Source: Isurus oxyrinchus (Eukaryota). Taken from it: DNA of 64,000 bases. Under the pieces are notes generated by a model. It was not told the DNA's origin, searched no databases, and saw only the letters and a program-made list of their open reading frames with translations. Every line of letters begins with the position of its first letter. The first letter of the stretch is position 1. The position numbers and the translations under genes were made by a program. The stretch covers positions 1,364,001 to 1,428,000 of the forward strand of contig JANJGN010000071.1 of NCBI GenBank assembly GCA_026770705.1. The letters are read 5' to 3'. This document shows positions 5,231 through 64,000 of this stretch, piece after piece.

Positions 5231-5428
5231 CCTCAGCTCGGTTTAGGTTACAGCTATGATGTGGATACAATCACACACAATAAGCTCATGGATCTGGGAG
5301 CAGAAATAGACAAATCATTAAAAATAGTGACGCTGGTTAACACGGCCAAAAAACAAGCAAATCAAACACTATTATTTCCCATTGAGTGTTGGATGTGAAT
5401 TGTTGAGTAATTATAACACAGCACTTAC

Positions 5429-5815
5429 CAGAAACGTGAAGCTGGGTTTCAGGATAGTAGCTGTATGTATTTCTGCTGTCAAATTCTATTCTGAAATAAT
5501 AATATCCTGCATCTTCCCGTCTGATGTTGTTTATAATCAGGGAACAGTCGCCATCTTTCAGGTCTCCAGACAGCCGTGTCCGTTGGTGGAACCGTGGTAA
5601 CTCGCGATTGTGATTCTTGGAGTGAAAGGCTATGGTCCCTCTAGACCTTGTATTCCATGTATTCCATGTGTACCGTTTCATGTACCAGATTCCGACATGT
5701 GCTCGCCCTACTACATGTGCTGGATAACTGTAGTTACATGGAATCTGTACACATGAACCTTCCTGCGCTGTCACCTCTCGTGGAGTGTCAACTTTCCACT
5801 CTTGTGACAGTCCAA
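5429..5815 (-). CDS. Gene A distal V-set Ig exon (Siglec-type, Arg present: YYFRIE)
   Basis: AG/GT bounded, 387 nt, phase 1-1. Starts VGLSQEW, which completes the signal peptide, and carries the Siglec V-set Cys pattern. Confidence 0.92.
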
Positions 5816-6437
5816 CTGGGGAGAGAAATATCAATATTTAACTCTGGATGGTTTGTAGATCCACTAGACTCGATATCCACCCCCTCCTTCACGGGGTCAG
5901 AGTGGCTGCAGTGTGGACCATCTACAGGACACACAGGGATCTCCCCAATGTTTCACAATGGATGGAAGAGAATCCTGGACACAAAAGCGGAAATATTCAT
6001 GCTACATTGGCTCATGGTGCTCAGGACCCTGTTTGTGTACAAACCTGCTCTGCAACAGAACTGAAGTTGGGGAAAATCCATTTGGAATTCCACTGTCCAG
6101 GGCATTGGGTTAACTTGCTAAGTTTGTTTTAAATCTAACATTTATTTTTGGTCTGTTGCCTTAAAGGAAGTGTAACTGGGAGTCAGGTTAATTAGGAATT
6201 TTAGGAGTTATTATAGCAGTCATTGTAGTCTTACGTACGTGCTTGAAATCTTTTATTTTGATGACAAATATTTTAATTTATTGTTTTAAATCTCTAAATG
6301 TCTTGATGGAGTTATTGCTTCTGAATTCAGTGCACAATCATAACAAATACAAATTGCAAAATCCTTATGATAGTGTGACCAAGTTTCTCTCATGGACTTG
6401 GTCTGCCTGGCACACATCACCTGCCAAGTGATAACAC

Positions 6438-7747: not shown

Positions 7748-8550
7748 CCATCCAGTCCAAGTTTCACTTTGGCCTGTGAGCAGAACACAGCTCACACAGT
7801 TTGTCTGCAGGTGTCTCCCAGCTTTCTATCCTTGTATATCTGTTCTCATGTCCCTGTTCTAAATAACTGAACCCAAAATGTGTTTACCCAATTCCGTATC
7901 AGTGGCTGGTGCCTTTATATCATTATAAAAACACAACATGGTGATGAGCGGTGGCCAAACATTCTGGTAGCAAGATTCAGTACAGGTATGACGTGGTGAA
8001 CAGCCTGAGATCGAGCTACATGACATGAGATGACCCTCGACGCTTTGGTCAGACCACAACAGAGACACAGCATCAGAGAGGGTTGAAATCGCAGTGTACT
8101 GACTGCTCAGGAAACCTTTGAAGACACAGTGATGGGAAAGAGCTCAAGTAAAGAGCTGGGGAGCAGACGGATCCCTTGTGGTGAGATTACAGCACACGGC
8201 CTGTAGGTCAGTGAGTGGGACAGTGTGTATCGCCAGGACCAGCAGCGGGTTAGCTCAGTCAGGGAAGGCGAGTGACCAGGGTGTGGGCTGGATCGATAGT
8301 GAGCGAGGGAGAGTCAAACACACAAAAACCATTATAAAAATCAGCCCAGAGAAGTTAGTGATTATAACGGGCGGCTTCGAGATTGCTGAACAGCAAATTG
8401 AATAAAAAACAAAGACTCCATTACTCCGTGGTGTGTTCCTGCCACAACCCGTCTTCGTGGGCGGAGCTTCGGAAAAGCGCACGAAAGGGGCTAAAGCGAC
8501 ACTCATCCCAGGTCCTGTAGGAGAAGGAAGGTCAAAGGAATATTGTCAGA

Positions 8551-9300
8551 ATGTCCACGAAATTCCCCAGTTTGAACTGGGATGTAGCTGACCGACTATC
8601 TGAATTCAGAATGTTTAAACAGCGTACAGAGCTCTGGTTTCCTGATTCAGCTGTGACTGAACCAGACGAGCCACCCATAAAAATTCACCTCGCGATTGGG
8701 AATGAAGGTCTACCCAGGCTGAACACATCAGGATTAACAGCAGAAGAGTGAAAGGATCCCCAATAGATATGGACGATATTGGAAGACAGGTTCAGAATCA
8801 GGTGAAACTCCATATTCATCAACTAGAGTTTATGTCATTTCATCAGCCTACACAATCCATAGACCACTTCATCAGCCGATGTAGAGAAAAGGGTACGCAC
8901 TGTGATTTCAAACACACAGCCTGCAGACACAGTTATTGAGTTGGTGATCACATCCACTCCCATGGAAGCCTTCCAGAAAGATCTGCTAGATAAGACCAAA
9001 ACCTATAGCATTGAAGAGCTACTCAAGGATGGACATAAATACGAAGTGATCCTCGCATGTCACCGAAGCTTACAGGTCCTCAGTACAACATCAATTGTTG
9101 ACATACTCACTAGAACATCCAAACCTAGTGAGATGTGTGGAAGGTGTGGCCTTCTGCAGGCACCAAGGAAATGCCCAGCTTTCCACCAATCCTGCAAGGC
9201 TTGTGGCAGAAAGGGCCATTGACAGCGGCAGGGCACTAGAGCAAAGGCTGATGCAGCTACAAAGAGCCGTGCGCTGATCCAAACAGACCCTGCACAACGG
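8551..9300 (+). mobile_element. Degenerate Gypsy-type LTR retrotransposon gag fragment (mirror ~20900-21660, minus)
   Basis: Broken ORFs with a gag-like N-terminus and tandem zinc-knuckle motif CGRCG..APRKCPAF.QSCKACGRKGH. Contains several stops and frameshifts. Confidence 0.7.
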
Positions 9301-11105
9301 GGAACCTTCAATCAATAAAAATGACCATCCGCTATCCCATCAGGAACATATACATGTGGTGACTGACAAACCAGGAAATGGCGATGATGTGCACGGCGAG
9401 ATGAGGAGCCCTGATCGATATTCTACCTCTCACACATTTCCTGACGTGGCTTGCCAATAAATTGTGGATTGTTGTCCTTAATGATCTCTCTGGCATCATC
9501 AAATAAATTGAAAATGTCCCATAGGGGTGGGATGTTCTGGCCCCACCCACTGCCAGGATTGTCCGGTCCGGCCGAAAGCCAATGGATTTATGTCTCAGAA
9601 ACTACCGCATCACCTCAGCTCATGACATAACATTAAAATATGCGGAAAGTTTCAACAATATTGGCAATTTCAAGGGAGCTGCAACATTACACCTGCATGA
9701 GAATGCAAGTCTGTCAGACTCCTTGCATTAAAATAAATACAATCCAACTTTGCCACGCTATCTTGTGTCTTAACTGCCCAATAATTTCTCTGCCTTCCAG
9801 GTTCACTTGCTCTCTCTTCTAATTTTGGCTGTGCATCTCCCTCTGCTGAACCTCCTCTCGGGATCCCATCCCCTGCCATGTTAGTTTAAAGCCTCCCCAC
9901 TTGCATCAAGGGTAAAATGCCAATTGAAACCAGGGACAACATTCAAGAATGACAATCCCACAGATCACTGTGAGCTTTTAAAGACACAACCAGACAAGGT
10001 TACCACCACAAGATCTGGGCGTAACAGCAGATTAACACTGCGCTTTAGAGACTCAAATATTCAACGGATCTATACACTTATGTCATTGTCAAGAAATATG
10101 AAAATGATACCATAAACCTCTTGTTCCCTGTCGTTCTCAAAGATCCATCCCTGCGGCGGCAGCCTTAAGATTTATTGATGTGGGGCTTAATTTATCAGAT
10201 TGTAGAATGATCCGGAACAGAAGGAAGCCATTTGGCCCATCGAGCCTGTGCTGGGCCTTTGAAAGATCTGTCCAATAAGTCCCACTCTCACCTCTGCTCT
10301 CTCCTCCACAGCCCTGCAAAATGTCCCCTTCAAGTATTTATCTAGTTCCCCTTCTGAAAGTTCCTGTTGAATCTGCTTCCACCGGCCTTTCAGGCAGTGA
10401 GTCAATGGTCTCTCTCTGAGCTGCAAAGTGCTCAGATTCTGTGAAATTTAAACTCTGCAGCAGATCAGAGACAATCATGATAACTCAGAATATTTGACAG
10501 TTTTACACAGAGACAGCTTTACCTTCCTTCTCTCTTTCAGTTATCTTGCTCCCTTATTGAAGTATCTAGCATGGTGAGAATGGACAGGAAGTGTGTCACT
10601 GAACAGCCTGTCTATTCTAGGAGCTGCTGTGTTGTCTTCATGGGAAATTCTGATTAAAATCAGCAAAAGACACTAATTTCAGGCCATTGTTATCCGAGTC
10701 CTAACATCGGGATAGACCTCAACCCCCAGTTTTTATCCCTGATTCTCTATTCAGCCGATCGCTCCCCTGTCACTCACTGACCTACACTGGCTCCCAGTCC
10801 AGCAATGACTCAAATTTCAAATTCTCATCATCGATTTCTTACCCCACCATCAACCCTCTCCCCTCCCTATCTCTGTAACCTCCTCCAGTTCCTACAACCT
10901 TCTGAGATCTCTGCTCTCCTACAATTTTGCTGTTAGACAGGGAGTCAGTGTATATCACTGAGCACAGGGGTGATGGGTGAATGGGACTTGGTGTGAGTTT
11001 GTACACTGGCTCACTGCTGAATCAGTTCCCTATCAGAGCTCAATAAGAATGTTCTTTTACAAAGACTATTAACCATAAATCTGTCCGAGCTGACGATGGT
11101 ATTAC

Positions 11106-11145
11106 CTTGGAGAAGTGACAGGAGGAAGTAAGATTTCCCGATCAT
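11106..11145 (-). CDS. Gene A leader (signal peptide) exon, coding part MIGKSYFLLSLLQ; exon 11106-11185
   Basis: ATG plus 13 codons and a phase-1 GT donor. Joins VGLSQ/EW of the V exon to give a plausible signal peptide. Coding sequence is identical to the mirror copy. Confidence 0.85.
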
Positions 11146-11595
11146 TGTCCACTCCCAGATATTCCATCCACTTCTCACTCTCAAGCTGTGAAAGAGAAAG
11201 GAGTTAATGAGACCTCACCTCTTGTCCGACAGCTCTCGAGTAATCAGAACTGCTTTTAGACAATGTCTTCACAGAATAATTTAATTCTCTGTGGGATGAT
11301 AGGTGCTCTGCAGAGAGTTACAATGTTTTAACAAAGAAAAACTATGGAGGGTTTGCATTTCTATAGCATCTTTCACCACCTCAGGATGTACCAAAGCTCA
11401 TGTCTCTGCACTTCCCTCATCCCTTGAGCTAGAAAGATGTGCTGTACAACAGAGTTGAGTCTCACACCCAGATCTCAATAATCAGTAGAAATCTTTCAAA
11501 GGCATCAATCATTGGAATCTGTCTTTATAAAGTCACAACATCAACAAAGGACGGTGTTGGTGGTGGAAGTGAATTCCAATCGTTCCGTTACTTAC

Positions 11596-12309: not shown

Positions 12310-12510
12310 CCCCTACCCCACATCACTCCTTAAACCAGCTTATATTTCAACACTTTCTTGGACTCAAACTCAAGTTCTGTCGAAGGGTCATGAGGACTTG
12401 AAACGTCAACTCTTTTCTCTCCGCCGATGCTGCCAGACCTGCTGAGTTTTTCCAGGTAATTCTGTATTTGTTTTGGATTTCCAGCATCCGCAGTTTTTTT
12501 GTTTTTATCT
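12040..12510. mobile_element. Penelope-like inverted terminal element (hairpin-forming), present in left arm only
   Basis: AAACAGAATTACCTGGAAAAACTCAGCAGGTCTGGCAGCATC...GACCCTTCGACAGAACT followed by its reverse complement. Related copies lie at ~51735-51885, ~58830-58920 and ~63780-63995. Confidence 0.6.
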
Positions 12511-13610
12511 CTGAGGGAGTGCTGCACTGTCAGAGGGTCAGTAATGAGGGAGTGCTGCACTATCAGAGGGTCAGTACTGAGGGAGTGCTGCACTGTCAGA
12601 GGGTCAGTACTGAGGGAGTGCTGCACTGTCAGAGGGTCAGTAATGAGGGAGTGCTGCACTATCAGAGGGTCAGTACTGAGGGAGTGCTGCACTGTTGGAG
12701 TGTCAGGAGTGAGGGAGTGCTGCAATTGTCGGAGGGTCAGTACTGAAGGAGTGCTGCACTGTCAGACGGTCAGTAATGTGGGAGTGTTCCACCATCAGAG
12801 GGTCAGTAATGAGGGTGTGCTGCACTGTCGGAGGGTCAGTTCTCATGGAGTGCTGAACTGTTGGCGGGTGTGTACTGAGTGATTTCCGCACAGTTGGAGG
12901 GTCAGTATTGAGGGGGTGCCGGACTGTGGTAGGGTTAGTACTGAGGTAGAGCGGAGTGTGAAGATATATCCTTTCATGGCAACTTTTAAATAGAATTTAT
13001 TTAAACAGAATTATTGTACTGTGTGTAATGCAAAAGAAAGGATTTGAGGAACTAAGTCATGTTGCCGTAAGCCTAAAAATAATTTTCACCGATTTCCATG
13101 ATTTAGCATTGAAACCTCCCTCTTTGGGCACCAGTCTTGATTCAAACAACTCGCTCAGCACAGTGGGAGGGTGAGTACTGATGGAGTGCTGCACTGTGGG
13201 AGGGTGAGTACTGAGGGAGTGCTGCACTGTGGGAGGGTGTGTACTGAGGGAGTGCTGCACCGTGGGAGGGTGAGTACTGAGGGAGTGCTGCACTGTGGGA
13301 GGGTGAGTACTGAGGGAGTGCTGCACTGTGGGAGGGTGTGTACTGAGGGAGTGCTGCACTGTGGGAGGGTGAATACTGAGGGAATGCTGCACTCTGGGTG
13401 GGTGAGTACTGAGGGAGTGCTGCACTGTCAGATTGTCATCCATGAGGGAGTGCTGCACTGTCAGAAGGTCAATGATGACGGGGTGCTGCACTTGAAAAGG
13501 GTCAATAATGAGGTAGTGCAGCACTGTCAGAGGGACAGTAATGAGGGAGCGCTGCACTGACAGAGGGTCAGGACTGAGAATATGCTGCACTTTCAGTTCT
13601 GAGCGTGGTC
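12510..13610 (+). repeat. 33-bp minisatellite (GAGGGAGTGCTGCACTGTCAGAGGGTCAGTACT), G-rich orientation, interrupted by a ~190-bp cassette
   Basis: Direct reading of tandem units. Produces the spurious 11-aa repeat ORFs (TVQHSLSTDPL). Confidence 0.9.
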
Positions 13611-13619
13611 TGCACTGTC

Positions 13620-14250
13620 CTAAGTGCATTCTAGGCGCTGACCAAGATTCCGCCTGATGTCTGTGTAACAACAACATCATGTACACGTCGAGAATAATTC
13701 TCACTGTGTCTGTGCAGCAGGACAGCTTTGGAATGGCACCACCACTGGCAGCAGTGTGCAACTACAATGTGACATGTTTACATGGGAAATTCCTATTATA
13801 AAGATGGGCTGAGGAACTCATATGATGGAGAAAAGGTGACAGCATGAAGCTATGTCTTTGAGCCAAGTATTTGGCAGCAAAATAAGAATTTTAATCTATA
13901 AATATCTACAGAACAGGCTGAGCATTTTAATTACTTGTGTTAATCAATGTAATTTTATTCATAACCTAAATGCTTCTTACAATCTATCGCAGCATGAAAA
14001 AGGTGCAGCATTCAGAAAGCACATTCCAATCAGAGAACACAGTTTAGCAACGTCACATTTCTGTTCATTCCTATTCGACCATGTTGGCTGCACACAGCCA
14101 GACAATGCCGTGGTTATGATGTGTCCACACAGCAGGACTGGGGAGCACCAGGTATAAGGAAAAGTTTCAGCTTGCTGAGGAGAAGAAGGAGAATCTCTCG
14201 TTCCAGGTTTCTCTCCGTACATTAAGAAGCAGGCATGCCGATGTTTCATT
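13620..14250 (-). pseudogene. Orphan copy of gene C 3' region / 3' UTR
   Basis: Near-identical to ~59400-60011 in the same orientation. Ends abruptly at GATGTTTCATT (14250). Confidence 0.75.
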
Positions 14251-14389
14251 CACCAGACCCTACAACCCTCCCTTTGAATGTAAACTCCTCCCATCCCTAC
14301 AAATCACCTTTCTCTGTTACAGATTCATGCCCCTAAAGCATCCCTTTCACTGTAACCTCCACCATCCCTACAACACCCCCATTCAGATC

Positions 14390-17300
14390 TCCCTCAGTAC
14401 AGAGGCTCCAACAGAGCAGCAGTCCCTCAGTACTGACTCTCTGACAGTGCAGCACTCCCTCAGTACTCGCCCTCCCACAGTGCAGCACTCCCTCAGTACT
14501 GACTCTCTGACAGTGCAGCACTCCCTCAGTACTCGCCCTCCCACAGTGCACCACTCCCTTAGTACTGACCCTCCCACAGTGCAGCACTCCATCAGTACTG
14601 AACCTCCCACAGTGCAGCACTCCCCCAGTACTCATCCGCCAACAGTGCAGCACTCCCTTAGCACTGACCCTTCCACATTGCAGCACTCCCTCAGCACTGA
14701 CCCTCCCACAGTGCAAAACTCCCTCAGCACTCACCCTCCCACAGTGCAGCACTCCCTCAGTATTGACCCACCCACAGTGCAGCACTCCCTCAGTACTCAC
14801 CCTCCCACATTACAGCACTCCCTCAGTACTCACCCTCCCACAGTGCAGCAATCCCTCAGCACTCACCCTCCCACAGTGCAGCACTCCCTCATTACTCACC
14901 CTCCCACAGTGCATCACTCCCTCGGTACTCACCCTCCCACATTGCAGGCAATCCCTCCGTACTTACAATCCCACTGTACAGCAGTCCCTCAGTACTCACC
15001 CTCACACAGTGCAGCACTCCCTCAGCACTCACCCTGCAACAGTGCAGCACTCCCTCAGCACTCACCCTCCCACAGTGCTGCATTCCTTCAGTACTGACCC
15101 TCCCACAGTGCAGCACTCCCTCAGTACTCACACTGCGACAATGCAGCACTCCCTCAGCACTGACTGTCCCACAGTGCAGCACTCCCTCAATACTGACCTT
15201 CCCACAGTGCGGTACTCCCTCAGAACTGACCTCCCACCAGTGCCGCACTCCCTCAGTACTGACCCAGCCACAGTGCAGCACTTCCTCAGTGCTCACCCTC
15301 CCACAGTGCAGCACTCCCTCAGTACTCACCCTCCCACAGTGCTGTGTGAGTTGTTTCAATCAAGACTGGTGCACAAAGAGGGAGGTTTCAATGCTAAATC
15401 ATTGAAATCGGTGAAAATTATTTTTAGCCTGAGGGGAACATTGCTTAGTTCCTCAAATCCTTTCTTTTGCAATAAGACACAGTACAAGAATTCTGTTTAA
15501 ATAAATTCTATTTAAACATTGCTAGGAAAGGATAGATCCACAAAATCTGCACTCCTTGAGTAAAGTGAAACGTACAGGACTAATCTATTTATACTGAGCT
15601 GATGATAGAGAATTTTACACAAGGCATGTTGCTAATTTCAAACATCATCTGAAGAATGGCAGGTCTGACAGCGCAGCACTCCCTCAGTACTGACCTTCCA
15701 ACAGTGCAGCTCTCCCTCAGTACTGAACATCCAAAAGTGCCGCACACCCACATTACTCAGCCTCTCACAGTGCAGCACTCCCTCAGCACTCACCCGCCCA
15801 CATTGCAGCACTCCTCAGTACTTACAATCCCACAGTGCAGCACTCCCTCAGTACTGACCCTCCCACAGTGCAGCACTCTCTCAGTACTCTCCCTCCCACA
15901 GTGTTGCCCTCCCTCAGCACTCACCCTCCCAAAGTGCAGCACTCCCACTGTACTCACAATCCCACAGTGCAGAACGCGCTAAGAACTGACCCTCTGACAG
16001 TGCAGCACTCCCTCAGTACTGACACTCTGACAGTGCAGCACTCCCTCAGTACTGACCCTCTGACAGTGCAGCACTCCCTCAGTACTGACCCTCTGACAGT
16101 GCAGCACTCCCTCAGCACTCATCCTCCCACAGTGCAGCATTCCCTCAGTACTGACCCTTTGACAGTGCAGCACTCCCTCAGTAGTCACCCTCCCACAGTG
16201 CAGCACTCCCTCAATACTCACCCTACCACAGTGCAGCACTCCCTCAGTACTGACCCTCCCACAGTGCAGCACTCCCTCAGTACTGATCCTCCCACAGTGC
16301 AGCACTCCCTGATTAATGTCCCTCTGACAGTGCAGCACTCCCTCAGTACTGACCCTCCCACAGTGCAGCACTACTTCAGTACTGACCCTCCCACAGTGCA
16401 GCACTCCATCAGTACTCTCCCTCCCACAATGCAGCACTCCCTCAGTACTGACCCTCCCACTGTGCAGCACTCCCTCAGTACTCACCCTCCCACAGTGCAG
16501 CACTCCATCAGTACTCACCCTCCCACAGTGCAGCACTCCATCAGTACTCACCCTCCCACAGTGCTGTGTGAGTTGTTTCAATCAAGACTGGTGCCCAAAG
16601 AGAGAGGTTTCAATGCTAAATCATTGAAATCAGTGAAAATTATTTTTAGGCTTACGGGAACAAGACTTAGTTCCTCAAATCCTTTCTTTTGCAATAAGAC
16701 ACAGTACAAGAATTCTGTTTAAATAAATTCTATTTAAACATTGCTAGGAAAGGATAGATCCACAAACTCTGCACTCCCTGAGTGAAGTGAAACGTACAGG
16801 ACTAATCTATTTATACTGAGCTGATGATAGAGAATTTTACACAAGGCATGTTGCTAATTTCAAACATCATCTGAAGAATGGCAGGTCTGACAGCGCAGCA
16901 CTCCCTCAGTACTGACCTTCCAACAGTGCAGCTCTCCCTCAGCACTGAACATCCAAAAGTGCCGCACACCCACATTACTCAGCCTCTCACAGTGCAGCAC
17001 TCCCTCAGCACTCACCCGCCCACAGTGCAGCACTCCCTCAGCACTCATCCTCCCACAGTGCAGCATTCCCTCAGTACTGACCCTTTGACAGTGCAGCACT
17101 CCCTCAGTAGTCACCCTCCCACAGTGCAGCACTCCCTCAGCACTCACCCTCCCACAGTGCAGCACTCCCTCAGTACTCACCCTCCCACAGTGCAGCACTC
17201 TCTCAGTACTCTCCCTCCCACAGTGTTGCCCTCCCTCAGCACTCACCCTCCCAAAGAGCAGCACTCCCACTGTACTCACAATCCCACAGTGCAGAACCCG

Positions 17301-18270
17301 CTAAGAACTGACCCTCTGACAGTGCAACACTCCCTCAGTACTGACCCTCCCACAGTGCAGCACTCCCTCAGTACTCACCCTCCCACAGTGCAGCACTCCC
17401 TCAGTGCTCTCCTTCCCACAGTGCAGCACTCCCTCAGTACTCACCCTCCCACAGTGCAGCACTCCCTCAGTACTCACCTCCCACAGTGCTGTGTGAGTTG
17501 TTTCAATCAAGACTGGTGCACAAAGAGGGAGGTTTCAATGCTAAATCATTGAAATCAGTGAAAATTATTTTTAGGCTTACGGGAACAAGACTTAGTTCCT
17601 CAAATCCTTTCTTTTGCAATAACACACAGTACAAGAATTCTGTTTAAATAAATTCCAGTTAAACTTTGCCATGAAAGGATATCTCCTCACACTGTGCACT
17701 ACCTCAGTACTAACCCTCCCACAGTCCGGCAACCCCTCAATACTGACCCTCCGACTGTGCGGAACTCACTCAGTACAGACCCGCCGACAGTTCAGCACTC
17801 CCACATTACTGACCCTCTGACAGTGCAGCACTCCCTCGGTACAGACCCTCTGACAGTGCAGCAGTCCCTCAGTACTGACTCTCTGACAGTAAAGCACTCC
17901 CTCATTAATGACCCTCTGACAGTGCAGCACTCCCACATTACTTACCTTCTGACAGTGCAGCACTCCCTCATTACTGACATTAAGACAGTGCAGCATTCCC
18001 ACAATTCTTACGCTCCAACAGTGCGGCACTCCCTCAGTACTGACTCTCCTACAATTCAGCACTTTCTCAATACTGACACCAGACAGTACAGCGCTCCCTC
18101 AGTACTGACTCTCTGACAATGCAGCAATGCCTCAGTACTGACACTCTGACAGTGCAGCACTCCCTTGTTACTGACGCCCTGACAGTGCAGCACTCCCTCA
18201 GTACTGACCCTCTGACAGTGCAGCTCTCCCTCGGTGCTGACCCCCTGACAGTGCGGCACTCCCTCAGTAA
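14390..18270 (-). repeat. 33-bp minisatellite arrays (C-rich orientation) with higher-order ~1-1.2 kb duplications
   Basis: Tandem 33-mers. A unique cassette GTGCTGTGTGAGTTGTTTCAATCAAGACTGG... recurs at ~15340, ~16560 and ~17487. Confidence 0.9.
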
Positions 18271-18491
18271 TGCTACCAGGGATTATCAACCTGGATCATT
18301 TGGCCAGAGACCTGTATTGGGAACTCTGTCGCCTGAGTTTCAGCCTCCGAGGTGAGGGGCAGGAGTCTAATCCCACAGAGCCAATGAAGAAGCTTCATGA
18401 CTACAGCTGCCCAAATATGAGCTGACAGATCATCACATGGTAAACATTTTGCTGAGAGCACAAAACATCCTCGATCTTCTCACTGATTACC

Positions 18492-18632: not shown

Positions 18633-19082
18633 GTAAGTAACGGAACGATTGGAATTCACTTCCACCACCAACACCGTCCTTTGTTGTTGTTGTGACTTTA
18701 TAAAGACAGATTCCAATGATTGATGCCTTTGAAAGATTTCTACTGATTATTGAGATCTGGGTGTGAGGCTCAAGTCTGTTGTACAGAACATCTTTCTAGC
18801 TCAAGGGATGAGGTAAGTGCAGAGACATGAGTTTTGGGGTGTCCTGAGCAGGTGAAAGGCGATATAGAAATGCAAATCCTTCATTGTTTTACTTTCTTAA
18901 AGCCTAGTAGTTCTCTGCAGAGCACCCATCATCCCACAGAGAATCAAATTAGTCTGTGAAGACATTGTCTAAATGCAGTTCTGATCTCTCGACAGCTGTC
19001 GGACAAGAGGTGAGGTCTCATTAACTCCGTTCTCTTTCACAGCTTGAAAGTGAGAAGTGGATGGAATATCTGGGAGTGGACA

Positions 19083-19122
19083 ATGATCGGGAAATCTTAC
19101 TTCCTCCTGTCACTTCTCCAAG
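19083..19122 (+). CDS. Gene B leader exon, coding part MIGKSYFLLSLLQ; exon 19043-19122
   Basis: ATG at 19083 and phase-1 GT donor at 19123, in frame with the V exons. Confidence 0.85.
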
Positions 19123-22100
19123 GTAATATCATCGTCAGCTCGGACAGATTTATGGTGAATAGTCTTTGTAAAAGAACATTCTTATTGAGCTGTGATTGGG
19201 AACCGATTCAGCAGTGAGCCAGCGTACAAACTCACACCAAGTCCCATTCACCCATCACCCCTGTGCTCACTGATATACACTGACTCCCTGTCTGACAGCA
19301 GAATTGGAGGAGAGCAGAGATCTCAGAGGGTTTTAGGGTTGGAGGAGGTTACAGGGATTGGGAGTGTAGAGGGGGGATGGTGGGGTAAGAAATCGATGAT
19401 GAGAATTTGAAATTTGAGTCATTGCTGGACTGGGAGCCAGTGTAGGTCAGTGAGTGACAGGGGAGCGATCGGCTGAATAGAGAATCAGGGATAAAAACTG
19501 GGGAATGAGGTCTATCCCGATGTTAGGACTCGGATAACATTGCCCTGAAATTTTGTGTCTTTTGCTGATTTTAGTCAGAATTTCCCATGAAGACAGCACA
19601 GCAGCTCCTAGAATAGACAGGCTGTTCAGTGTCACACTTCCTGTCCATTCTCACCTTGCTAGATACTTCAATAAGGGAGCAAGATAACTGAAAGAGAGAA
19701 GGAAGGCAAAGCTGTCTGTGTGTAAAACTGTCAAATATTCTGAGTTATCATGATTGTTTCTGATCTGCTGCAGAGTTTATATTTCATTGAAACTTATCAC
19801 TTTGCAGCTCAGAGAGAGACCATTGACTCACTGCCTGAAAGGCCGGTGGAAGCAGATTCAACAGGAACTTTCAGAAGGGGAACTGGATAAATACTTGAAG
19901 GGGACATTTTGCAGGGCTGTGGAGGAGAGAGCAGAGGTGAGAGTGGGACTAATTGGACAGGTCTTTCAAAGACCCAGCACATGCTCGATGGGCCAAATGG
20001 CTTCCTTCTCTTCCGGATCATTCTACAGTCTGATAAATTAAGCCCCACATCAATAACTCTTAAGGCTCCGGCTGCAGGGATGGATATTTGAGAGGGAAAA
20101 GGGAACAAGAGGTTTCTGGTATCATATTCATATTTCTTGACAATTACATAAGTGTATAGATCTGTTGAATATTTGAGTCTCTAAAGTGTAGAGGTAATCT
20201 GCTATTACGCCCAGATCTTGTGGTGTTAACCTTGTCTGGTTGTGTCTTTAATTGCTCACAGTGATCTGTGGGATTGTCATTCTTGCATGTTGTCCCTGAT
20301 TTCAAATAGCATTTTGCCCTTGATGCAAGTGGGGAGGCTTTAAACTAACATGGCAGGGGATGGGATCCTGAGAGTAGTTTCAGCAGAGGGAGATGCACAG
20401 CCAAAATTAGAAGAGAGAGCAAGTGAACCTGGCCAGTTAAAGCACAATATCATGTGGCAAAGTTGGATTGTATTTATTTTAATGCAAGGAGTCTGACAGA
20501 CTTGCATTCTCCTGCAGGTGTGATGTTGCAGCTCCCTTGAAACTGCCAATATTGTTGAAACTTTCTGCATATTTCAATGTTATGTCATGAGCTGAGGTGA
20601 TGCGCTAGTTTCTGAGACATAAATCCATTGGCTTTCGGCCAGACCGGACAATCCTGGCAGTGGGTGGGGCCAGAACATCCCACCCCTATGGGACATTTTC
20701 AGTTTACTTGATGATGCCAGAGAGATCATTAAGGACAACAATCCACAATTTATTGGCAAGCCACGTCAGGATATGTGTGAGAGGTAGAATATCGATCACC
20801 GCTCCTCGTCTCGCCGTGCACATCATCGCCATTTCCTGGTTTGTCAGTCACCACATGTCTATGTTCCTGATGGGATAGTGGATGGTCATTCTTATTGCTT
20901 GAAGGTTCCCCATTGTGTAGGGTCTGTTTGGATCAGCACACGGCTCTCTGTAGCTGCATCAGCCTTTGCTCTAGTGCCTTGCCGCTGTCAATGGCCATTT
21001 CTGCCACAAGCCTTGCAGGATTAGTGGAAAGCTGGGCATTTCCTTGGTGCTTGCAGAAGGCCACACCTTCCACATGTCTCACTAGGTTTGGATATTCTAG
21101 TGAGTGTGTCAACAATTGATGTTGTACTGAGGACCTGTAAGCTTCGTTGACCTGCGAGGATCACTTCGTATTTATGTCCATCCTTGAGTAGCTCTTCAAT
21201 GCTTTAGGATTTGGTCTTATCTAGCAGATCTTTCTGGAAGGCTTCCATGGGAGTGGATGCGATCACCAACTCAACAACTGTGTCTGCAGGCTGTGTGTTT
21301 GAAATCACAGTGCGTACCCTTTTCTCTACATCGGCTGATGAAGTGGTCTATGGATTGTGTAGGCTGATGAAATGACATAAACTCTAGTTGATGAATATGG
21401 AGTTTCACCTGATTCTGAACCTGTCTTCCAATATCGTCCATATCTATTGGGGATCCTTTCACTCTTCTGCTGTTAATCCTGACGTGTTCAGCCTGTGTAG
21501 ACCTTCATTCCCAATCGCGAGGTGAATTTTTATAGCTTGTTCGTCTGGTTCAGTCACACCTGAATCAGGAAACCAGAGCGCTGTACGCTGTTTAAACATT
21601 CTGAATTCAGATAGTCGGTCAGCTACATCCCAGTTCAAACTGGGGAATTTCGTGGACATTCTGACAATATTCCTTTGACCTTCCTTGACATGAGAACAGA
21701 TATACAGGGATAGAAAGCTGGGAGACACCTGCAGCCAAACTGTGTGAGCTGTGTTCTGCTCACAGACCAAAGTGAAACTTGGACTGGATGGTGTTATCAT
21801 CCCAGCTGATGTTACTACTGGGCAAGTCAGATCCCAGGGTGGAACTCAGCTTGATAGGTCCTAACTTTTATTGTTTATTTAGGAATGTGGAGTGCGGCTA
21901 CTGAACACAGTCACAGGAGTCATCTGATGAACTTCTAACAAAAGAATAAAATATTTATTAAACAAGAAAGGATGATCTATAGGACAATACTGCTTCACCC
22001 AGACCTATATCTTTACAGATATATACAGATTCATAAGGATAACACAAGTTACAATGGCTTCTATCTTGTGTTTGTTTTGACTTTCCTTCAAGAGTCACCC

Positions 22101-22316
22101 AACCCCATTAGATTGCTCGCTTCTATAAAAATGAAGCCAAAACTCAAGTTTCCCCCTTTCATAACACACAAATACTGTAACCAAACTAAACTTGAACTTA
22201 AAGATATACCTTATGCCTAACACACACAAAACACACCTAACTTATGTAAGCTATCCCCTGTTCCTAAAAATCACAGTGATGTCATGCTGCTGTCCCTGAA
22301 AGGCGTATTACAACAG

Positions 22317-23242
22317 TGTTATCACTTGGCAGGTGATGTGTGCCAGGCAGACCAAGTCCCTGAGAGAAAGGTGGTCACATGATCATAATGATTTTGCAAT
22401 TTGTATTTATTACGAGAGGTGTGCACTTAATTCAGAAGCAATAATTACACCAAGACCTTTAGAGATTTGAAAATTAAATTAAAATACTTGCTCTCAAAAT
22501 AAAAGATTTCAAGCACATACAATACTCTACAATTACCACTATAGTAATTCTTAAAATTCCAAATTAACCTGACTCCCAGTTACACTCCCTTTAAGGCAAC
22601 GGTCTGAAAATAGACTTTATATTTAAAACAAACTCAGCAAGTTAACACAATACAATAGCAATACCGAACAGTGGAATTCCAAGTGGCTTTTCCCCAACTT
22701 CAGTTCTGTTGGATAGCAGGCTTGTGCACAAATGCTTGAGGTTTCATTAAGACTATATCACACACTAGTGTTAGATCTTACATGGCATTCTGACACATAG
22801 CCTTTCATTCTCCCTGATAGATATATATTTCTCTCTTTGTAACATGAAAATTCTATTGTTCCAAATGTTTTTGAAACTGTATCTTCCTCATAACAAATTC
22901 TTTCGTGGTGCCCATATTGCCAGGAGCCTTTGAGAAAAATAAACACATTCCTTAGTCTTGCTTATCTGGCGAGTTGTAAACAAACTAAGATTCCTTTGAA
23001 ATCCAACAACCCCTTCATTGATATAAAAATGCAAATTCTCTTCATACCTTCCATGCTAAGCAGCATCCATGTTTCCTCAATAGCATGTCAAGCACCTAGC
23101 TCCTTTGGATAATTTTAAACTGACAAACTAATTAACTCCAAATGTACTTAAATCACATGCAGACCCGATTATACACACCCCAATAAACCTACTTCACAAT
23201 AAACCAGAAAAATATTATGAAAATTATTATACTTTCATCACA
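22317..23242 (-). mobile_element. Solo LTR-like element (same family as 35215-36109; truncated mirror at ~6035-6436)
   Basis: TGTGATGAAAGTATAAT...GATAACA termini and similarity to the 35215-36109 insert. Confidence 0.6.
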
Positions 23243-23646
23243 ATAGGAATCACTGCCTTAGACATTGAGGATATCGGACAGCTAGGCTAATTAGTGATTC
23301 ATGACGGTGATAATGGGGGGAGTTCTGAGGGCTCCTAATCCATTGTCCTGTCTTGTAAATCAGCACTGAATGGATGTCAATTGGTGGGTCTTGCAGACAC
23401 TGTGTTGGGTGGAAGACTGGCTTCACTAAACAGGTTCCTGAGGACCATGAGCCAATGTAGAATGAACTTGTCCACTCCTGTGTCGAGGATTCTCTTCCAT
23501 CCATTGTGAAACTTTGGGAAGTTCATTGTGTGTCCTGTAGATGGTCCATACTGCAGCCACTGTGCCCCAGTGATGGAGGGGGTGGATATCAAGTCTAGTG
23601 GATCGAAAAAATATTCAGAGTTAAATATTGATATTTCTCTCCCCAG

Positions 23647-24021
23647 TTGGACTGTCACAAGAGTGGAAAGGTGACACTCCACGAGAGGTGACAGTGCAGG
23701 AAGGATCGTGTGAACAGATTCCATGTCATTACGGTTATCCAGCACATTTGGTCAGGAGATCACTTGTCGGAATCTGGTATATGAGAAGGTATTGGGATAG
23801 ATGGTCAACATGGTCTATAGCATTCCACTCCGTGGATCACAGTCACGAGTTACCATTGTTCCACCATCGGACACGGCTGTCTGGAGACCTGAAAGATGGC
23901 GACTGTTCCCTGATTATAAACAACATCAGACGGGAAGATGCAGGATATTATTTTTTCGGAATAGAATTTGACAATGGTCCGAGCCATAACTATTACCCTG
24001 TAACCCAGCTTCACGTTTCTG
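23647..24021 (+). CDS. Gene B distal V-set Ig exon (Siglec-type; essential Arg replaced by Gly, YFFGIE)
   Basis: AG/GT bounded, 375 nt, phase 1-1, open frame. GGA at 23958-23960 where the paralogues have AGA. Confidence 0.92.
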
Positions 24022-25254
24022 GTAAGTGCTGTGTTATAATTACTCAACAATTCACATCCAACACTCAATGGGAAATAATAGTGTTTGATTTGCTTGTTTT
24101 TTGGCCGTGTTAACCAGCGTCACTATTTTTAATGATTTGTCTATTTCTGCTCCCAGATCCATGAGCTTATTGTGTGTGATTGAATCCACATCATAGCTGT
24201 AACATAAACCGAGCTGAGGGGTGATGACACCTCCCCCCTGAGTGAAGTGTCTCCTCCCCACTACACCTTCCACCCCTCACACTGTCCGTGTAAACCCCCG
24301 TCCCATCTCCAGCCTCTCGTTGCCCTCCAAAGTCCTTGAACGTGTTTCCATCTCCCGAATCCGTTCCCATCTTTCCTGGAACTCCATGTTTGAATCCCTC
24401 CAATCAGGTTCCCACCCCAGCCACTGTGCTGAAACAGCTCTTATCAAGGTCACAAATGGCATCCTGTGTGACTGTGACAAAGGTCAACTTTCCCTCCTCG
24501 TCCTTCTCGATCTGTCTGCAGCCTTTGACATGCTCCACCACACCATCCTCCTCCAACACCTCTCCACTGTCGTCCAGCTGGGTGGGACTGCTCTCCCCTG
24601 GCTCCATTCTTATTCATCTCATCGTAGCCAGAGAATCACTTGCAATGGCTTTGCAGCATCATCTGAACAGTGTTAGTTTTCACCTGTCCACTGAGGATGC
24701 CCAGCTCTACCTCACCACCACCTCTCTCGACTCCTCCACTGCTGCTAAATTATCAGGCTGCTTATCCGACATCCAGTACTGGATGGGCAGAAATTCCCTC
24801 CAATTAAATATTGGAAAGACTGAAGCCATTGTCTTCATTCCCCGCTCCAAACTCTGTTCCCTCGCTACCAACACCATTCCTCTCCCTGACAGCTCTCTGA
24901 GATTGAAGCCAATCTGTTCACAGCTTTGTTGTCCCATTTGATCCTGAGATGAGCTTCCGGCCTCATATCTGCGCCCTCACTAACACCGTCTATTTCCACC
25001 TCCATAACATCGCGCGACGTCACCCTGTCTCAGCTCATCTGCTGCTGAAACCCTCATCCACGCCTTCATTACCTCCAGACTCGACTGTTCCAACACACGG
25101 TCTACACTCCATAAACTTGAGGCCATCCAAAACTGCTGACCACGTCCTTACTCACACCAAGTCCCATTCCCTTATCACCCGCTCTGCTCGATGACCGAGA
25201 CTGGCTCCTGGTCAAGCAAAGTCTCAATGTCCAAATTTTCATCTTTGTTTCCTC

Positions 25255-57430: not shown

Positions 57431-58919
57431 GAGCTAGATAGATTCTTGATTAACAATGGGGTGAAAGGTCATTGGGGGTAGGCAGGAATGTGAGGTTGAG
57501 GTGACAATCAGATCAGCCATGATCTTACTGAATGGCGGAGCAGGTTCGAGGGACTGAGTGACCTACTCCTGATCCTAACTCAGATATCCATATGTTCTCA
57601 AAGGCAAATGGGGATGGGCAACAAATACTGGCCTAGTCAGCGACACCAACATCCCTGAAATGAATAAGAAAAAAATGTATCAATCAATTAAATTTATTGA
57701 TTAATCGAATCTAAATTCCTCCAGCTGCCGTGGTGGGATTTGAACCCGTACCTCCAAAGCATTCACCTGGGCCTCTGGATCACTGGCCTAGTGCCATTCC
57801 CATTGTGCGACTGTCTGCTATCATCATGGCTCTTTCACATCGATGTGGAAGTCCTGATAACAGAAGCATTGGACGAGGTACAGAAAGGTGTCAGATCAGG
57901 AGCTCCATTGCTCAATATGAACGGATAATAAAGATAAATGAACATAAACCTTCCAGTCGCTAATTAGGGAGTCACTGTGGAGCCCATGAGTCCCTCGCAG
58001 CGCTATTGCAACCTTCTGGATCCCCAGTAGGGGACTCGGGGTGCAGCTGTGTCTTCCTCATCATTTGGAAAAGCCGGAATTGTTCGGGTGCCCCTTCAAA
58101 CAGGCCAAAGATGCAGTGGGTGATGTCTCCCACAGGCCCTGGGAGACCTCCCCTGCCAATTTGTTTTGTAGCTTATTCTTCAACTGCGACATTGGATCAG
58201 CTTGAAAAAGGGTGAGGCTGAGGCAATACCACCAGGTAAGCGTCTATCCCCTCCCACTTCACCCCCCCCACCCCCGTAACCATCACAGTCCCTCCCATCG
58301 TGCTGGAGGAGCATAATGTGCACATTCCCCTCCTTCCAATCAGTCTCCTCCCTTCCTCTCTAATCCTTGATCTTATTGTGTTGGGGGTTGACATGCCAGT
58401 CCTCCTCCCTAGACTGTCTGATGTTGACATCCCAATGCCCCATGTAGACCTGACCTCTCTCCAACTAGAGGCCCATTGTACTGTGACTTACAGAGACCAC
58501 CGGCCCCCCTCGATTCCCACCCCCACCCCTACTCTCTATATTACCTGCTCCCCACTGACAGGCTGCAGATGCCTCCCCTGACTGGGATTGTGCCACCTGC
58601 GGCCTAGTATCAAGCCACCCACCCCCAGGATGGACGTGTGTGAGCGACTGACCACGTCCTGCACACCATGCTGGGCACGACCAACCCAGGACTGCCAGGC
58701 TGTCCCCACCACACTGGACTGGGCCTAGAATAGGCGTGCCAAGCACAGCTCTCTAAATCGTGGCGCAGACCCACAGCACTCGCAATGTTTTGTGGCCCGA
58801 ATCCTTGCTGAGGAACTGCCCAGCACTAAAATCAAAAAAACTGCAAATGCTGGAAATCCAAAACAGAAACAGAAATACCTGGAAAAACTCAGCAGGTCTG
58901 GCAGCATCGGCGGAGAAGA

Positions 58920-59370
58920 ACTGAGGGAGTGCGGCACTGTCGGAGATTCAGTACTGAGGGAGTGCTGCACTGTCGGAGGGTCTGAGCTGAGGGAGTGCTG
59001 CACTGTCGGAGGCTCTGAACTGAGGGAGTGCTGCACTGTCGGAGGGTTTGAACTGAGGGAGAGCTGCACTGTCGGAGGGTTTGAACTGAGGGAGTGCTGC
59101 ACTGTCGGATGGTTTGAACTGAGAGAGTGCTGCACTGTCGGAGGTTCTGAACTGAGGGAGTGCTGCACTGTCTGAGGGTTTGAACTGAGGGAGTGCTGCA
59201 CAGTCGGAGGGTCTGAACTGAGGGAGTGCTGCACTGTCGGAGGGTTTGAACTGAGGGAGTGCTGCATTGTCGGAGGGTCTGATCTGAAGGAGTGCTGCAC
59301 TGTAGGAGGGTCTGAACTGAGGGAGTGCTGCGCTGTTGGAGGGTCAGTACTGAGGGAGTGCTGCGCTGTC
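58920..59370 (+). repeat. 33-bp minisatellite (TGAACT variant)
   Basis: Tandem GAGGGAGTGCTGCACTGTCGGAGGGTTTGAACT. Confidence 0.9.
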
Positions 59371-60079
59371 TAAAGAACATTGTACAAATTGCACAAAATT
59401 GCATCTGATGCCTGTGTCTCATGCTAACATGAAGTTCATGCACACAACAGGAATATTTCTCGCTGTTTCTCTGCAGCAAGACAGCTTTGATATCACACCA
59501 GCCACTGGCAAATGTGTGCAGCTACAATGTGACATGTTTACATTGGAAATTTCTATTATAAAGATGGACAGAGGAATTCATCTGATTGGAAAACGTGACA
59601 ACATGAAGTAATGTCTTTGAGCCAAGAATTTTGCAGCAAAATAAGAATTTTAATCTTTAAATATCTACAGAACAGGCTGAGCATTTTAATCACTTGAGTT
59701 AATCAATGTAATTTTATTCATAAGCCAAATGCTTCTTACAATCTATCGCAGCATGAAAAAGGTGCAGCATTCAGAAAGCACATTCCAATCAGAGAACAGA
59801 GTTTAGCAACGTCACATTTCTGTTCATTCCTATTCGACCATGTTGGCTGCACACAGCCAGACAATGCTGTGGTTATGATGTGTCCACACAGCAGGACTGG
59901 GGAGCACCAGGTATAAGGAAAGGTTTCAGCTTGCTGAGGAGAAGAAGGAGAATCTCTCGTTCCAGGTTTCTCTCCGTACATTAAGAAGCAGGCATGCCGA
60001 TGTTTCATTGCACTCTGTCTGCTGATGGGAGTCCGCTTGGAAATTGCTGTTTGTGCTGATGGAAAGAATAAGCTTTTCA

Positions 60080-60690: not shown

Positions 60691-60795
60691 CGAAGGTGAT
60701 TCTAACCAGGGCACTGACCAATTTCATTACAACTTAACCCAACATCACACGTTATTTGTCCGCACTGACTGACCAGATTGTTGCTGTACAAAGCT

Positions 60796-60935
60796 TCAAA
60801 CAGTCTGTCGACTTCCTTTCACTGTTTGTCTCTCCCAGACACAGACTCCAGCAATAGTGATAACCACAGCCACAAGGAATATCACAGCTCGTATTCCCAG
60901 GATCAGGATCACGTGCAGAATCTCTCCTCCACTGT
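60796..60935 (-). CDS. Gene C transmembrane + short tail exon, activating type (YSGGEILHVILILGIRAVIFLVAVVITIAGVCVWERQTVKGSRQTV*)
   Basis: ttctctag acceptor, phase 1, in frame with the Ig exon at 62641-62922. Hydrophobic helix contains Arg and is followed by a ~12-aa tail without Tyr. Confidence 0.85.
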
Positions 60936-62640
60936 CTAGAGAACACACAGAAAGAAATCATCACTGACTCTCCGCTTTCAATCTCTCACTCTGGCTGAAC
61001 AATCAAGCTTCATATCACTACAACATTTGCTGTAATATTGACCCATCCACTGGGATTCAATGTGGAATGAATGTTTTCATTGTAAACACTCTAAGAGTGG
61101 ACAATCGGAACTTTCCCCTTAGCGTGGAACATTGGTGAGAATGGATCATTGTGCTGTTGGACTCCCTGTCCAATGTTTCTCTCCATCGCTGTGTACAGGA
61201 TTGTGCTGTAGAAAATTCTGGAAACGTTTAGTGCAGCGTGGAAATCCATCTCGGACGCGTGTGCGAATCGGGCAGGATCGAGATGGACTCCCTCACGGAC
61301 TTACTCACCCCGCTTAATAAACAGTTCCAATCTTTACCCAGAGAGAGGGGAGAATGTGGAACTCGCTCCCACAGGGAGTGGTTGAGGTGAACAGTATCGA
61401 TGTATTTAAGGGGCAGGAGGGTCGGTAACCAGAGGGACACAGATTGACGAACCGGAGGGGGAGATGAGGAGAATTTGTTTTGATAGAGCGAGTTGTTGTG
61501 ATCTGGAAGGTGCTGCCTGAAAGGGCGGTGGAAGCAGATTCAATAGGAACTTTCAAAAGGGAAATTGGATTAACACTTGAAGGAGGAAGATGGGGGCAAA
61601 GTGGAGTGGTGGTTAGTGGATCTGATTGGATAGAACATTGAAAGACCTGGCACAGGCACAATGGGCTGAATGGCCTCCTCCTGTGCTGTATCATTCTCCG
61701 CTTCTATGATCTCTCCCCCAGTTAGTAACCGCTCCAGATCCCTCTTGAAGGCAACAGAGAGACAGCAACCACCACACCCACTGACAGCACATTCCCGAGG
61801 ATCCCTACTCTCTGGGAAAAGATGAACTCCCCAACATCCAGCCTATTCCTGCTTCCTGGAGAGTGTAAACCCTTCCCAGAGCGCGGATGAATCTTTCAAT
61901 AAACTGTATTATCAAATCTACCATTTGATATATAAGTTAATTTCGATGAACTTACAGCATGTGTTGCAAATTGTGAAGTGAAGTTGGCTGAAAAGCTGGG
62001 AGGTGCAAGGTTAAGCACCACAGTGCCATCACTGGTGGGAGGATGTAAAGACAGTGTGACGTTTACATATGTTGCCCCCATTATAAACAGGGTCATTGGA
62101 CATGATGGCAAAACTGAACACTGGAAAGGTGAGAAAATGAAGTAAGCTCTTCACTAACAGGAAATCCCTTCCTAAACTTCCTTATCTCTCCCTTTCTCTC
62201 AGATACACAAAAAATTTGTCACAGGGCATTATAAGGAGGAGTTAGGACAGGCAAGAGTTACGGATTAGGAAGCTTCTTAAAGGAGGAGAGAGATACACGG
62301 AGAGGTGGGGAGTATCAGTTGGAATCTTTGTGCATGTGAGTTTCTGGAATAGACTTTGTAATTTGGATATTCTTCGATAAATATGAATGGGAACACATAT
62401 CCCAGAATCCAGGAGAACTCTCCAGTGCAGTACTGAGGGAGGTCAGGTAACTCACAAGGGAGTGTGTACTACTGAGTTAGTGTGTGAGTGTGTCTTTCTG
62501 TGTGCTCATGAGTGTGGGATTGTGTGTGTGCATGCACTTTGGGTCTGTACATTTGTGAGTGCTTGTGTGTGTGTGCGTGGGAGAGCATCTGAATATTTGT
62601 GTTTGGAGATGAGAGAAATATTAAAGTCTGTGTAACTCAC

Positions 62641-62922
62641 ATTCCACAGTGATGGTTATGAACCCCTCCACTGCTCCATGTTCATTCTCTGCCACACACT
62701 GATATTCTCCAGTGTCCCTGGATGTAACGTGAGGAATCACCAACCACAGCTCATTGTTGGAACTTGTTCTGTTCATTGGGACATTAAGATGTCGCCACAT
62801 CAGGTTAGAAGCTGGGAAGCTCTCGACAGAGCAGATTATCACTGCAGAATTCCCCTCAATTATATTGATCGATGAAGCGTTAATCATATCTGGAGAAGTA
62901 ATTGAGAGATTCCGTGGTGCGT
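62641..62922 (-). CDS. Gene C membrane-proximal Ig (C2/I-set) exon (DAPRNLSI...IICSVESFPASNLMW...DTGEYQCVAENEHG...ITVE)
   Basis: ttttag acceptor and gtgagt donor, 282 nt, phase 1-1, MAG/CD22/Siglec-like domain. Upstream exons lie beyond the window end. Confidence 0.9.
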
Positions 62923-63049
62923 CTAAAAACAAATACAGATCAGTTAACTTACACTGACTGTGAAGCACTTTGAAAGACACTGAGAATGTGAAAGGTGTGA
63001 TGTCAATGTACGTTCTTTCACCACATAGCCCGTAATCCAGGCAGACACT

Positions 63050-63520
63050 TCAGTTCAGTATTGAGGGCGTGCTGCACTGTCAGAGGGTCAGTACTGAGGG
63101 AGTGCTGCACTGTCAGTGTGTCAGTACTGAGGGAGTGTGGCACTGCCAGAGGGTCAGTCCTGAGGGGATGCTGCACTGTCGGAGGGTCAGTAGTGAGGGA
63201 GATCTGCACTGTTGGAGGGTCATTACTGAAGGAGTGCTGCACTGTCAAATGTTCGCTTCTGAGGGAGTGCTGCACTGTAGGAGGGACAGGGAGTGCTGCA
63301 CTGTAGGAGGGACAGTACTGTGGGAGCGCTGCACTGTAGGAGGGACAGTACTGTGGGAGCCCTGCACTGTAGGAGGGTTACTGCTGAGGTAAAACTGCAC
63401 AGTCAGAGCGTCAGTTCTGATTGACCAGTGCAATGTTGGAGGAGCACTACTGAGGGATCATTACACTATTAGAGAGTCAGTAATGAGGGAGTGCTGCACT
63501 GTAGAAGGGTCAGTGCTGAG
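63050..63520 (+). repeat. 33-bp minisatellite, intronic
   Basis: Tandem degenerate 33-mers. Confidence 0.85.
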
Positions 63521-64000
63521 GAGGCAAACACGCTGTTATGTGTGTACTATAGGCCTCCTGTGATAATGTGGAGTGCCAGGTACCTTTAAGAGAATACAAG
63601 TGGATAAACCATGTGACAGTACTGACCAATCACTGGACAGTGTGGGCCACTGGTTAACTGTAAGTCTAGAGCTGGAGGTGGCTGTGGGAGCAGGCAAGGA
63701 TTTAGTGCTCTGCCCTCTGTTACAATAAATAATCAGCTTGTTCTAATGTCGGTCTCTCTTGGTTATTGATAGCGAGCATCAACTAAGAAGAACTCAGCAG
63801 GTCTGGCAGCTTCGGGGGAGAAGAAAAGAGTTGATATTTCGAGTCCTCATGACCCTTCGACAGAACTGAGGTCATGAGGACTCGAAACGTCAACACTTTT
63901 CTTCTCCGCCGATGCTGCCAGACCTGCTGAGTTTTTCCAGGTAACTCTGTTTTTGTTTTGGATTTCCAGCATCCGCAGTTTTTTTGTTTTTATCAACTAA

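Follow-up and report, generated by a model that had tools for sequence, protein, structure and literature searches.

We consider it probable that positions 60796–62922 of the window (the whole 64,000-nucleotide stretch of Isurus oxyrinchus DNA that was analysed, contig C71:1364001-1428000) contain the 3′ end of gene C, one copy of a Siglec-like shark gene type that likely forms the activating arm of a paired-receptor cluster; gene C is itself probably a dead member of that cluster. The initial annotation had proposed an activating receptor coupled to an ITAM adaptor. For the family this proposal stands, on the strength of a Siglec V-set, an invariant Arg in the transmembrane (TM) segment, no signalling tail, ITIM/ITSM-bearing relatives and adaptor exons with acidic TM segments; for gene C as a working copy it does not, since ATA replaces the start codon. 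The combination of a basic TM residue with a short ITIM-free tail is that of the Siglec-14/16 type, and in Siglec-14 that residue is an Arg close to where the TM segment begins.

Gene C is encoded on the reverse strand. Its membrane-proximal C2-type Ig exon, Cj (62641–62922; 282 nt, phase 1-1, two Cys, open, with AG/GT ends), is followed after a GT...AG intron (60936–62640) by the TM exon (60935–60774), which is preceded by a pyrimidine tract and an AG acceptor. The coding part of this exon (60796–60935) specifies a short stalk, a hydrophobic segment containing Arg (CGA codon, 60889–60891) and a 12-residue tail without Tyr, ended by TGA at 60798–60796; the translation reads ...HVILILGI-R-AVIFLVAVVITIAGVCVW, and then the tail. 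As the initial annotation had claimed, the Ig exon splices in frame to the Arg-TM exon (62922–62641 to 60935–60774; matching phases, GT-AG ends, Cj donor at 62641) and the tail is about 12 residues long and Tyr-free. The TM prediction that it called for agrees: the best 21-residue window (residues 8–28, mean Kyte-Doolittle 2.95) contains the Arg, which is the eighth position of the hydrophobic segment and residue 15 of the forced-frame exon translation, and hydrophobicity is absent in the other two frames. The longest ORF over the exon (77 aa, 60755–60985) is in a different frame, in agreement with the remark in the initial annotation that its ORF track missed the TM frame. A chance origin of the TM exon is contradicted by its 228 matches in the same genome, against 0 for the reversed control. 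Nothing in the PDB matches the exon at E<=10, a point against the activating reading. Beyond the stop, 22 nt of 3′UTR (60774–60795) run to a GT donor, which leads to a non-coding last exon (59690–60055; AATAAA at 59718, ATTAAA at 59690, 3′ end provisional), and a further coding tail exon is therefore not possible. By the 50-nt rule for nonsense-mediated decay, the 22-nt post-stop distance is short enough to escape. Arrays of a roughly 33-nt minisatellite (window positions 12333–18300, 33480–34230, 58728–59521 and 63021–63457) give long spurious ORFs with QHSLSTDP-type repeats.

Upstream of Cj an intron leaves the window (62923–64000, reverse strand), and the remaining exons, all on the same strand, lie outside the window edge. 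In the coordinates of locus L031 (window coordinate minus 60000) these are the C2a exon (L031:5979-6275), the V-set exon (L031:7220-7588) and, 4.6 kb past the edge and so out of view of the initial annotation, the leader exon (L031:8540-8622). The architecture is thus signal-V-C2-C2-TM, and each of the exons (leader, V-set, C2a, Cj, TM) is open and in phase 1. At L031:8577-8579, however, the leader exon of gene C reads ATA in the place of the ATG usual in the family. Six codons upstream the same exon has an in-frame TAA, and neither the leader exon nor the upstream non-coding exon examined offers another ATG. Genome-wide, the same leader context carries ATA 15 times (on 8 contigs) and ATG 490 times, and we therefore regard the ATA as inherited by a few copies and not as a base-call error; an apparent restriction of ATA to gene C was discarded, as the single match had come from too strict a pattern. 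In the contigs of four runs guessed to be RNA, every contig over the start position reads G, the ATG letter. On the ATA, the upstream stop, the lack of another ATG and the G in the contigs, gene C is probably a start-lost, non-functional copy.

The ectodomain is that of a Siglec. The best PDB matches of the V exon are Siglec-5, MAG, Siglec-8, CD33, Siglec-10 and sialoadhesin (E 5e-16 to 1e-13), no PDB sequence other than a Siglec stands among the top 18, and the exon order leader-V-C2-C2-TM gives the V-set followed by C2-type domains of a type I TM protein. The scores of Siglec-5, MAG and CD33 against the shark V lie within 5 bits of one another (E ~1e-15), whereas Siglec-15 is a weaker match (E 3e-8). 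In the alignments inspected, the F-strand Arg of V (YFF-R-IE) aligns with the Arg of Siglec-5 and MAG, and there is a Tyr on the G strand; through this Arg the V domain would bind sialylated glycans. The essential F-strand Arg is present in 71 of the 76 intact V exons at Arg-TM loci (104 V exons scored). Cysteines are found at positions 21, 26 and 84 of V and 22, 28 and 80 of C2a, presumably the Siglec pattern of a V-to-C2 Cys pair plus an intra-sheet disulfide in V. All 120 longer homologues retrieved belong to sharks and rays; lamniform sharks supply the closest (up to 84%), and RefSeq automatically names most of the 120 Siglec-like. A divergent V-set frame inside the cluster (C71:1281437-1281718, reverse strand) is about 30% identical to the family.

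Two further genes of the family lie in the same window. Gene A (732–11187, reverse strand) is of the Arg type, with a leader carrying ATG (11187–11106), V1 (5815–5429), V2 (2122–1757) and C2a (1028–732), and its Arg-TM exon lies 859–1020 nt left of the window. As it is open throughout and starts with ATG, gene A has the stronger claim to being a working activating receptor and is the better test subject: gene C matters little by itself, being probably dead, and gene A is the testable one. Gene B (19041–34923, forward strand) has the inhibitory design: a leader with ATG, V1, V2, C2a, an uncharged TM exon (32207–32303) and two tail exons (33181–33262 and 34675–34923) with an ITIM-like LFYANI and an ITSM TEYAQI. 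In its V1 (23647–24021) Gly replaces the essential sialic-acid-binding Arg, and V2 retains it. The splice donor of its C2a exon (29434–29435) is CT instead of GT, and this exon may be skipped; joining V straight to TM keeps the frame, as in RefSeq model P0016. While the initial annotation was correct in placing an inhibitory gene B in the same cluster, the close partner of gene B is gene A, not gene C. Genes A and B stand head to head, and long aligned 5′ blocks are 91–94% identical, introns included. The V exon of gene C has a near relative of its own: it shares 88% identity with that of L164, whose TM exon belongs to the second uncharged type.

A maximum-likelihood tree was built from the intact V exons nearest the TM, 58 in all (43 Arg-type and 15 uncharged-type; exons with breaks and loci lacking a V in range were omitted), and in it the gene C and L164 exons are sisters (support 100/99). 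The Arg/uncharged label needs 12 changes on this tree, of which at least 7 are forced by well-supported branches; shuffled labels need 13.4 on average, and 101 of the 500 shuffles need no more than the observed 12. With the labels thus mixed, ectodomains are not sorted by tail type, as in paired receptors. Ectodomain exons may be shuffled or converted between activating and inhibitory ends, with copies born and dying quickly. An ITIM-like frame at window position 47538 (reverse strand) was dropped, as it had no link to any family exon.

The cluster to which these genes belong is large. Pattern counts in the assembly, which contains some haplotype duplication, gave 228 Arg-TM exons and 333 uncharged TM exons, the latter of two types, together with 753 V exons and 395 ITSM-type last exons that often stand in tandem; the reversed controls gave 0. 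Among the first 100 Arg-type TM exons listed, 98 have CGA and 2 CAA. We sampled the first 80 Arg loci listed, as well as the first 40 uncharged loci of contig C52 not yet in the sample. Arg was found in 78/80 of the sampled Arg loci (Gln in the other 2) and an AG acceptor in 79/80; an open V-C2-TM was present in 31/80, the leader being out of the fetched range for most of these, and 49/80 failed. Best-match identity among the Arg loci has a median of 98.0% and exceeds 99.5% in only 6/80, which indicates that most Arg copies are true paralogs. Many sampled Arg loci have two or three tandem V exons. On C52, V exons follow one another in tandem at a spacing of ~2.3 kb in two runs of six to seven (1871633-1886939 and 3109165-3122178), the latter run preceding Arg-TM locus L102, and multi-V Siglec-like proteins also occur in RefSeq (P0001, P0002). 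Family genes with the second uncharged TM type are found at C34:15130000-15149999 (L209-L210), on a contig of 19.9 Mb, and these members are a possible chromosomal anchor of the cluster. Variation in V is concentrated between the B and C-prime strands, in a loop region where dN is 0.33 (0.05 in the framework). Pooled NG86 dN/dS was 0.65 for V, 0.69 for the main variable loop region, 0.35 for the F-G loop and 0.82 for C2a, remaining below 1 in V and in the loops tested; we claim no positive selection.

Splicing of the family was followed in the contigs of the same four guessed-RNA runs. Placed at 90% likeness, these contigs reveal joints at the level of the family, and not expression level, strand or gene C itself. 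Among the joints listed are leader-V (7588/8540 in L031 coordinates) and V-C2a (6275/7220). C2a is joined directly to TM (937/5982) in 3/4 runs, with two extra matched letters and one inserted letter, which fits the exon end of a paralog spliced to the acceptor at 60935, and C2a is joined to Cj (2924/5982) in 2/4 runs. The joint from the TM exon to the 3′UTR last exon (55/774, with CT..AC ends) is seen in 1/4 runs. The initial annotation had suggested looking for RNA reads across 62641/60935: while family transcripts do use the TM acceptor, this exact Cj-TM joint is not among the 15 joints listed, beyond which there are 183 more. The Cj-to-Cj joints listed use the Cj donor, and RefSeq catshark model P0029 has the same exon type as Cj joined to Arg-TM in the same frame. 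A full Cj precedes TM in only 9/80 sampled Arg loci, and judging by their exon content most Arg loci would splice C2a directly to TM. At most of the Arg loci L051-L130 just the 3′ half of a Cj exon (positions 130–282) is left, ~600 nt 3′ of C2a. This half-Cj is a shared relic that transcripts appear to skip.

The Arg anchor is conserved among sharks. Among 158 proteins fetched, 24 homologues have this TM; their sources are the white shark Carcharodon carcharias, the catsharks Scyliorhinus canicula and S. torazame and the bamboo shark Chiloscyllium punctatum, which represent three shark orders. Arg is kept in 24/24 of them and a tail Tyr is found in 0/24; the block V-I-x-I-L-G-I-R-A is invariant over the three orders and the tail varies. 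The 158 proteins, collected by a word-based search and so weak evidence on this point, included no Arg-TM homologue from rays or from other shark orders. The copies within the genome do not by themselves prove selection on the Arg, because its CpG is lost just as seldom as that of a tail Arg (2/79 each), and it is the conservation across orders that carries the claim. In Chiloscyllium punctatum the same Arg-TM ends proteins of another Ig family (P0155-P0158; named CD22-like, CEACAM5-like or sialoadhesin-like), from which we infer that the anchor exon was shuffled between families. A CD22-like gene of the present genome (C2274) was considered as a bearer of the Arg anchor and rejected, having an uncharged TM candidate instead.

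According to passages of PMC13358205, activating paired receptors have a short tail and bind ITAM adaptors through a basic residue in the TM. By analogy, the TM Arg would pair with the two Asp residues of a dimeric ITAM adaptor, and this adaptor, once phosphorylated, would recruit Syk. The genome contains TM exons with Asp of FcR-gamma (97% identical to catshark FcR-gamma), of CD3-zeta and of a DAP12-like chain (E 5e-7 to DAP12, 2.5e-5 to CD3-delta). A degenerate adaptor motif search returned 14 matches, two of which (L223, L224) translate to the DAP12-like TM and a third of which is L222, vs 20 matches in the control; a quick motif scan found no ITAM exons near L223, and a Pfam DAP10 search gave weak matches only, several with stops. 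The FcR-gamma (L132/L133) and DAP12-like (L223/L224) exons are each present twice on small contigs, probably as uncollapsed haplotypes. A CxxC-TM exon with Asp (L222, C24:26051312) scores best with CD3-delta and could be CD3 or DAP10.

As to which adaptor is used, the indications differ. Measured as fractional depth between the flanking charged or polar residues, the receptor Arg lies at ~0.30, the FcR-gamma Asp at ~0.27 and the DAP12-like Asp at ~0.41, which points weakly to FcR-gamma or zeta. The initial annotation had drawn an analogy to LILRA, OSCAR and GPVI, and this holds as regards the position of the Arg towards the outer end of the TM and the short tail. The NxxR motif at the TM start is absent, however, with L-G-I-R in 24/24 homologues. 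In the available text of PMC2413239 it is NxxR TM segments, those of LILRA/OSCAR/GPVI/XFL, that bind FcR-gamma, and the activating Siglecs described in parts of PMC13358205, PMC8615218 and PMC6288428 use DAP12. The absent NxxR and the Siglec precedent lean to DAP12 and against putting FcR-gamma first. A predicted complex of the Arg-TM and two FcR-gamma TM chains had a score of 0.14 and a mark of 0.34 and is given no weight either way. On balance we rank FcR-gamma first, with about an even chance of being the partner; DAP12 comes second as a credible though less probable choice, and CD3-zeta or some other chain comes last and would be a surprise.

Several other readings of the locus and of the family have to be weighed against this one. 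It is unlikely that gene C works after all, be it by initiation at a non-AUG (ATA) codon, via an unseen upstream coding exon or because ATG is the usual allele. Every exon is open and the splice sites are intact (375 codons in all), ATA leaders recur on 8 contigs, and the ATA paralog L074 is likewise open downstream of its ATA; on the other hand, the two other ATA paralogs sampled (L063 and L090; n=3) have further breaks, the in-frame TAA stands upstream with no ATG in the exons examined, and no contig in the four runs has the ATA letter, though contigs drop rare variants. More improbable still, the copy number could be an assembly artefact, with both haplotypes kept or falsely duplicated. Some haplotype duplication is evident from the doubled FcR-gamma and DAP12-like exons on small contigs, and three pairs of C52 loci are >99.8% identical; C52 (4.17 Mb), however, lists 66 Arg-TM and 86 uncharged TM exons with zero mismatches on a single contig, the C71 and C52 loci are just 93–99.4% identical and not collinear, and many Arg-TM paralogs are also found in white shark RefSeq.

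We give a similarly small chance to dual output of some loci, by which one ectodomain would be joined to Arg-TM in some transcripts and in others bypass it in favour of a headless Ig-TM-ITIM module further downstream. Such modules, consisting of two to three Cj exons, an uncharged TM and a tail without a leader, V or C2a of their own, lie 11–23 kb downstream of Arg-TM on the same strand at 3/7 loci followed (gene A, L053 and L064), and the phases are compatible. Yet one frameshifted Cj exon is common to 5/6 modules checked (those of gene A, L053, L167, L186 and L196, not of L064), which makes a copied, decaying relic the more likely origin, and the apparently headless module L175 has another inhibitory end upstream, not an Arg-TM. 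The Arg-TM proteins might, with hardly greater probability, be adaptor-independent tethers or decoys that serve sialic-acid adhesion or uptake or compete with the inhibitory forms, the Arg only snorkelling at the outer membrane edge: the 18 hydrophobic residues after it (16–33) might nearly span the membrane alone, and sialoadhesin is given as having no signalling domain in a part of PMC13358205. Against this, seven hydrophobic or Gly residues precede the Arg, the block around it is invariant in three shark orders where the tail is variable, and the anatomy is standard for activating paired receptors in the same source. For the family, the reading as an activating receptor is a good fit. A headless Cj-Cj-Cj-TM-ITIM module, with the shared 1-nt deletion in its middle Cj, is located 12–18 kb left of the window (C71:1345884-1351617; also L143-L148).

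The closest known systems include the primate pairs Siglec-5/14 and Siglec-11/16, in which a Siglec V-set ectodomain is common to an ITIM form and a short-tailed basic-TM form; the available portions of PMC6288428 and PMC13358205 further describe homogenisation by gene conversion and frequent null alleles of the activating form. The shark cluster differs in scale (about 230 + 330 TM exons, against two pairs in humans) and in its common tandem V-set domains; DAP12 coupling is demonstrated for the primate receptors, whereas for the shark forms adaptor coupling is a prediction. Siglec-15 is also a short activating Siglec, found in fish too, that engages its adaptor via a basic TM residue (PMC7226832, in part), but this residue is Lys and the family is not expanded. 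The FcR-gamma partners LILRA2, OSCAR, GPVI, NKp46, Fc-alpha-RI and Xenopus XFL TM1 share the outer-end TM Arg, the short tail and the reuse of one TM exon on many ectodomains (sections of PMC2413239); the shark proteins differ in having Leu three residues before the Arg, and thus no NxxR, and a Siglec-type ectodomain. In gene number the cluster resembles chicken ChIR, with hundreds of genes (an excerpt of PMC10247546), and Xenopus XFL, with at least 75 genes in which Ig exons are combined with two TM types (PMC2413239, in part), although these are LRC- or FcR-like families, not Siglecs.

In fish only four Siglecs are regular and inhibitory CD33-related Siglecs are lacking, according to the accessible part of PMC7226832, where sharks go unmentioned; the corresponding text of PMC8455134 mentions Siglecs once, as a gnathostome family, and that of PMC4536121 holds no shark data. 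The literature covered, which leaves most subscription journals and supplements outside and with them genome-paper tables that may mention it, describes no shark Siglec expansion, cluster or anchor of this kind. Humans have 15 Siglecs. We tentatively propose, as a bolder and rather less likely than likely reading, that lamniform sharks possess the largest Siglec repertoire yet seen: a cluster of 10+ Mb with at least 500 gene units, in which V exons are combined with an ITIM end or else with an Arg anchor peculiar to sharks, which couples to FcR-gamma instead of DAP12 and which moved onto a CD22-like family in the bamboo shark. The surprising part is the scale of the cluster and the mixing of ectodomains. 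If true, these would be the first FcR-gamma-coupled Siglecs, and the paired arrangement would have arisen independently of the primate pairs or be far older than them. Hundreds of activating and inhibitory Siglec-like genes in sharks would take paired sialic-acid sensing as far back as the oldest antibody-bearing jawed-vertebrate lineage. The cluster would also be a candidate for the NK and myeloid receptor system of sharks, of which little is known, and would provide a natural series on what decides the choice between FcR-gamma and DAP12.
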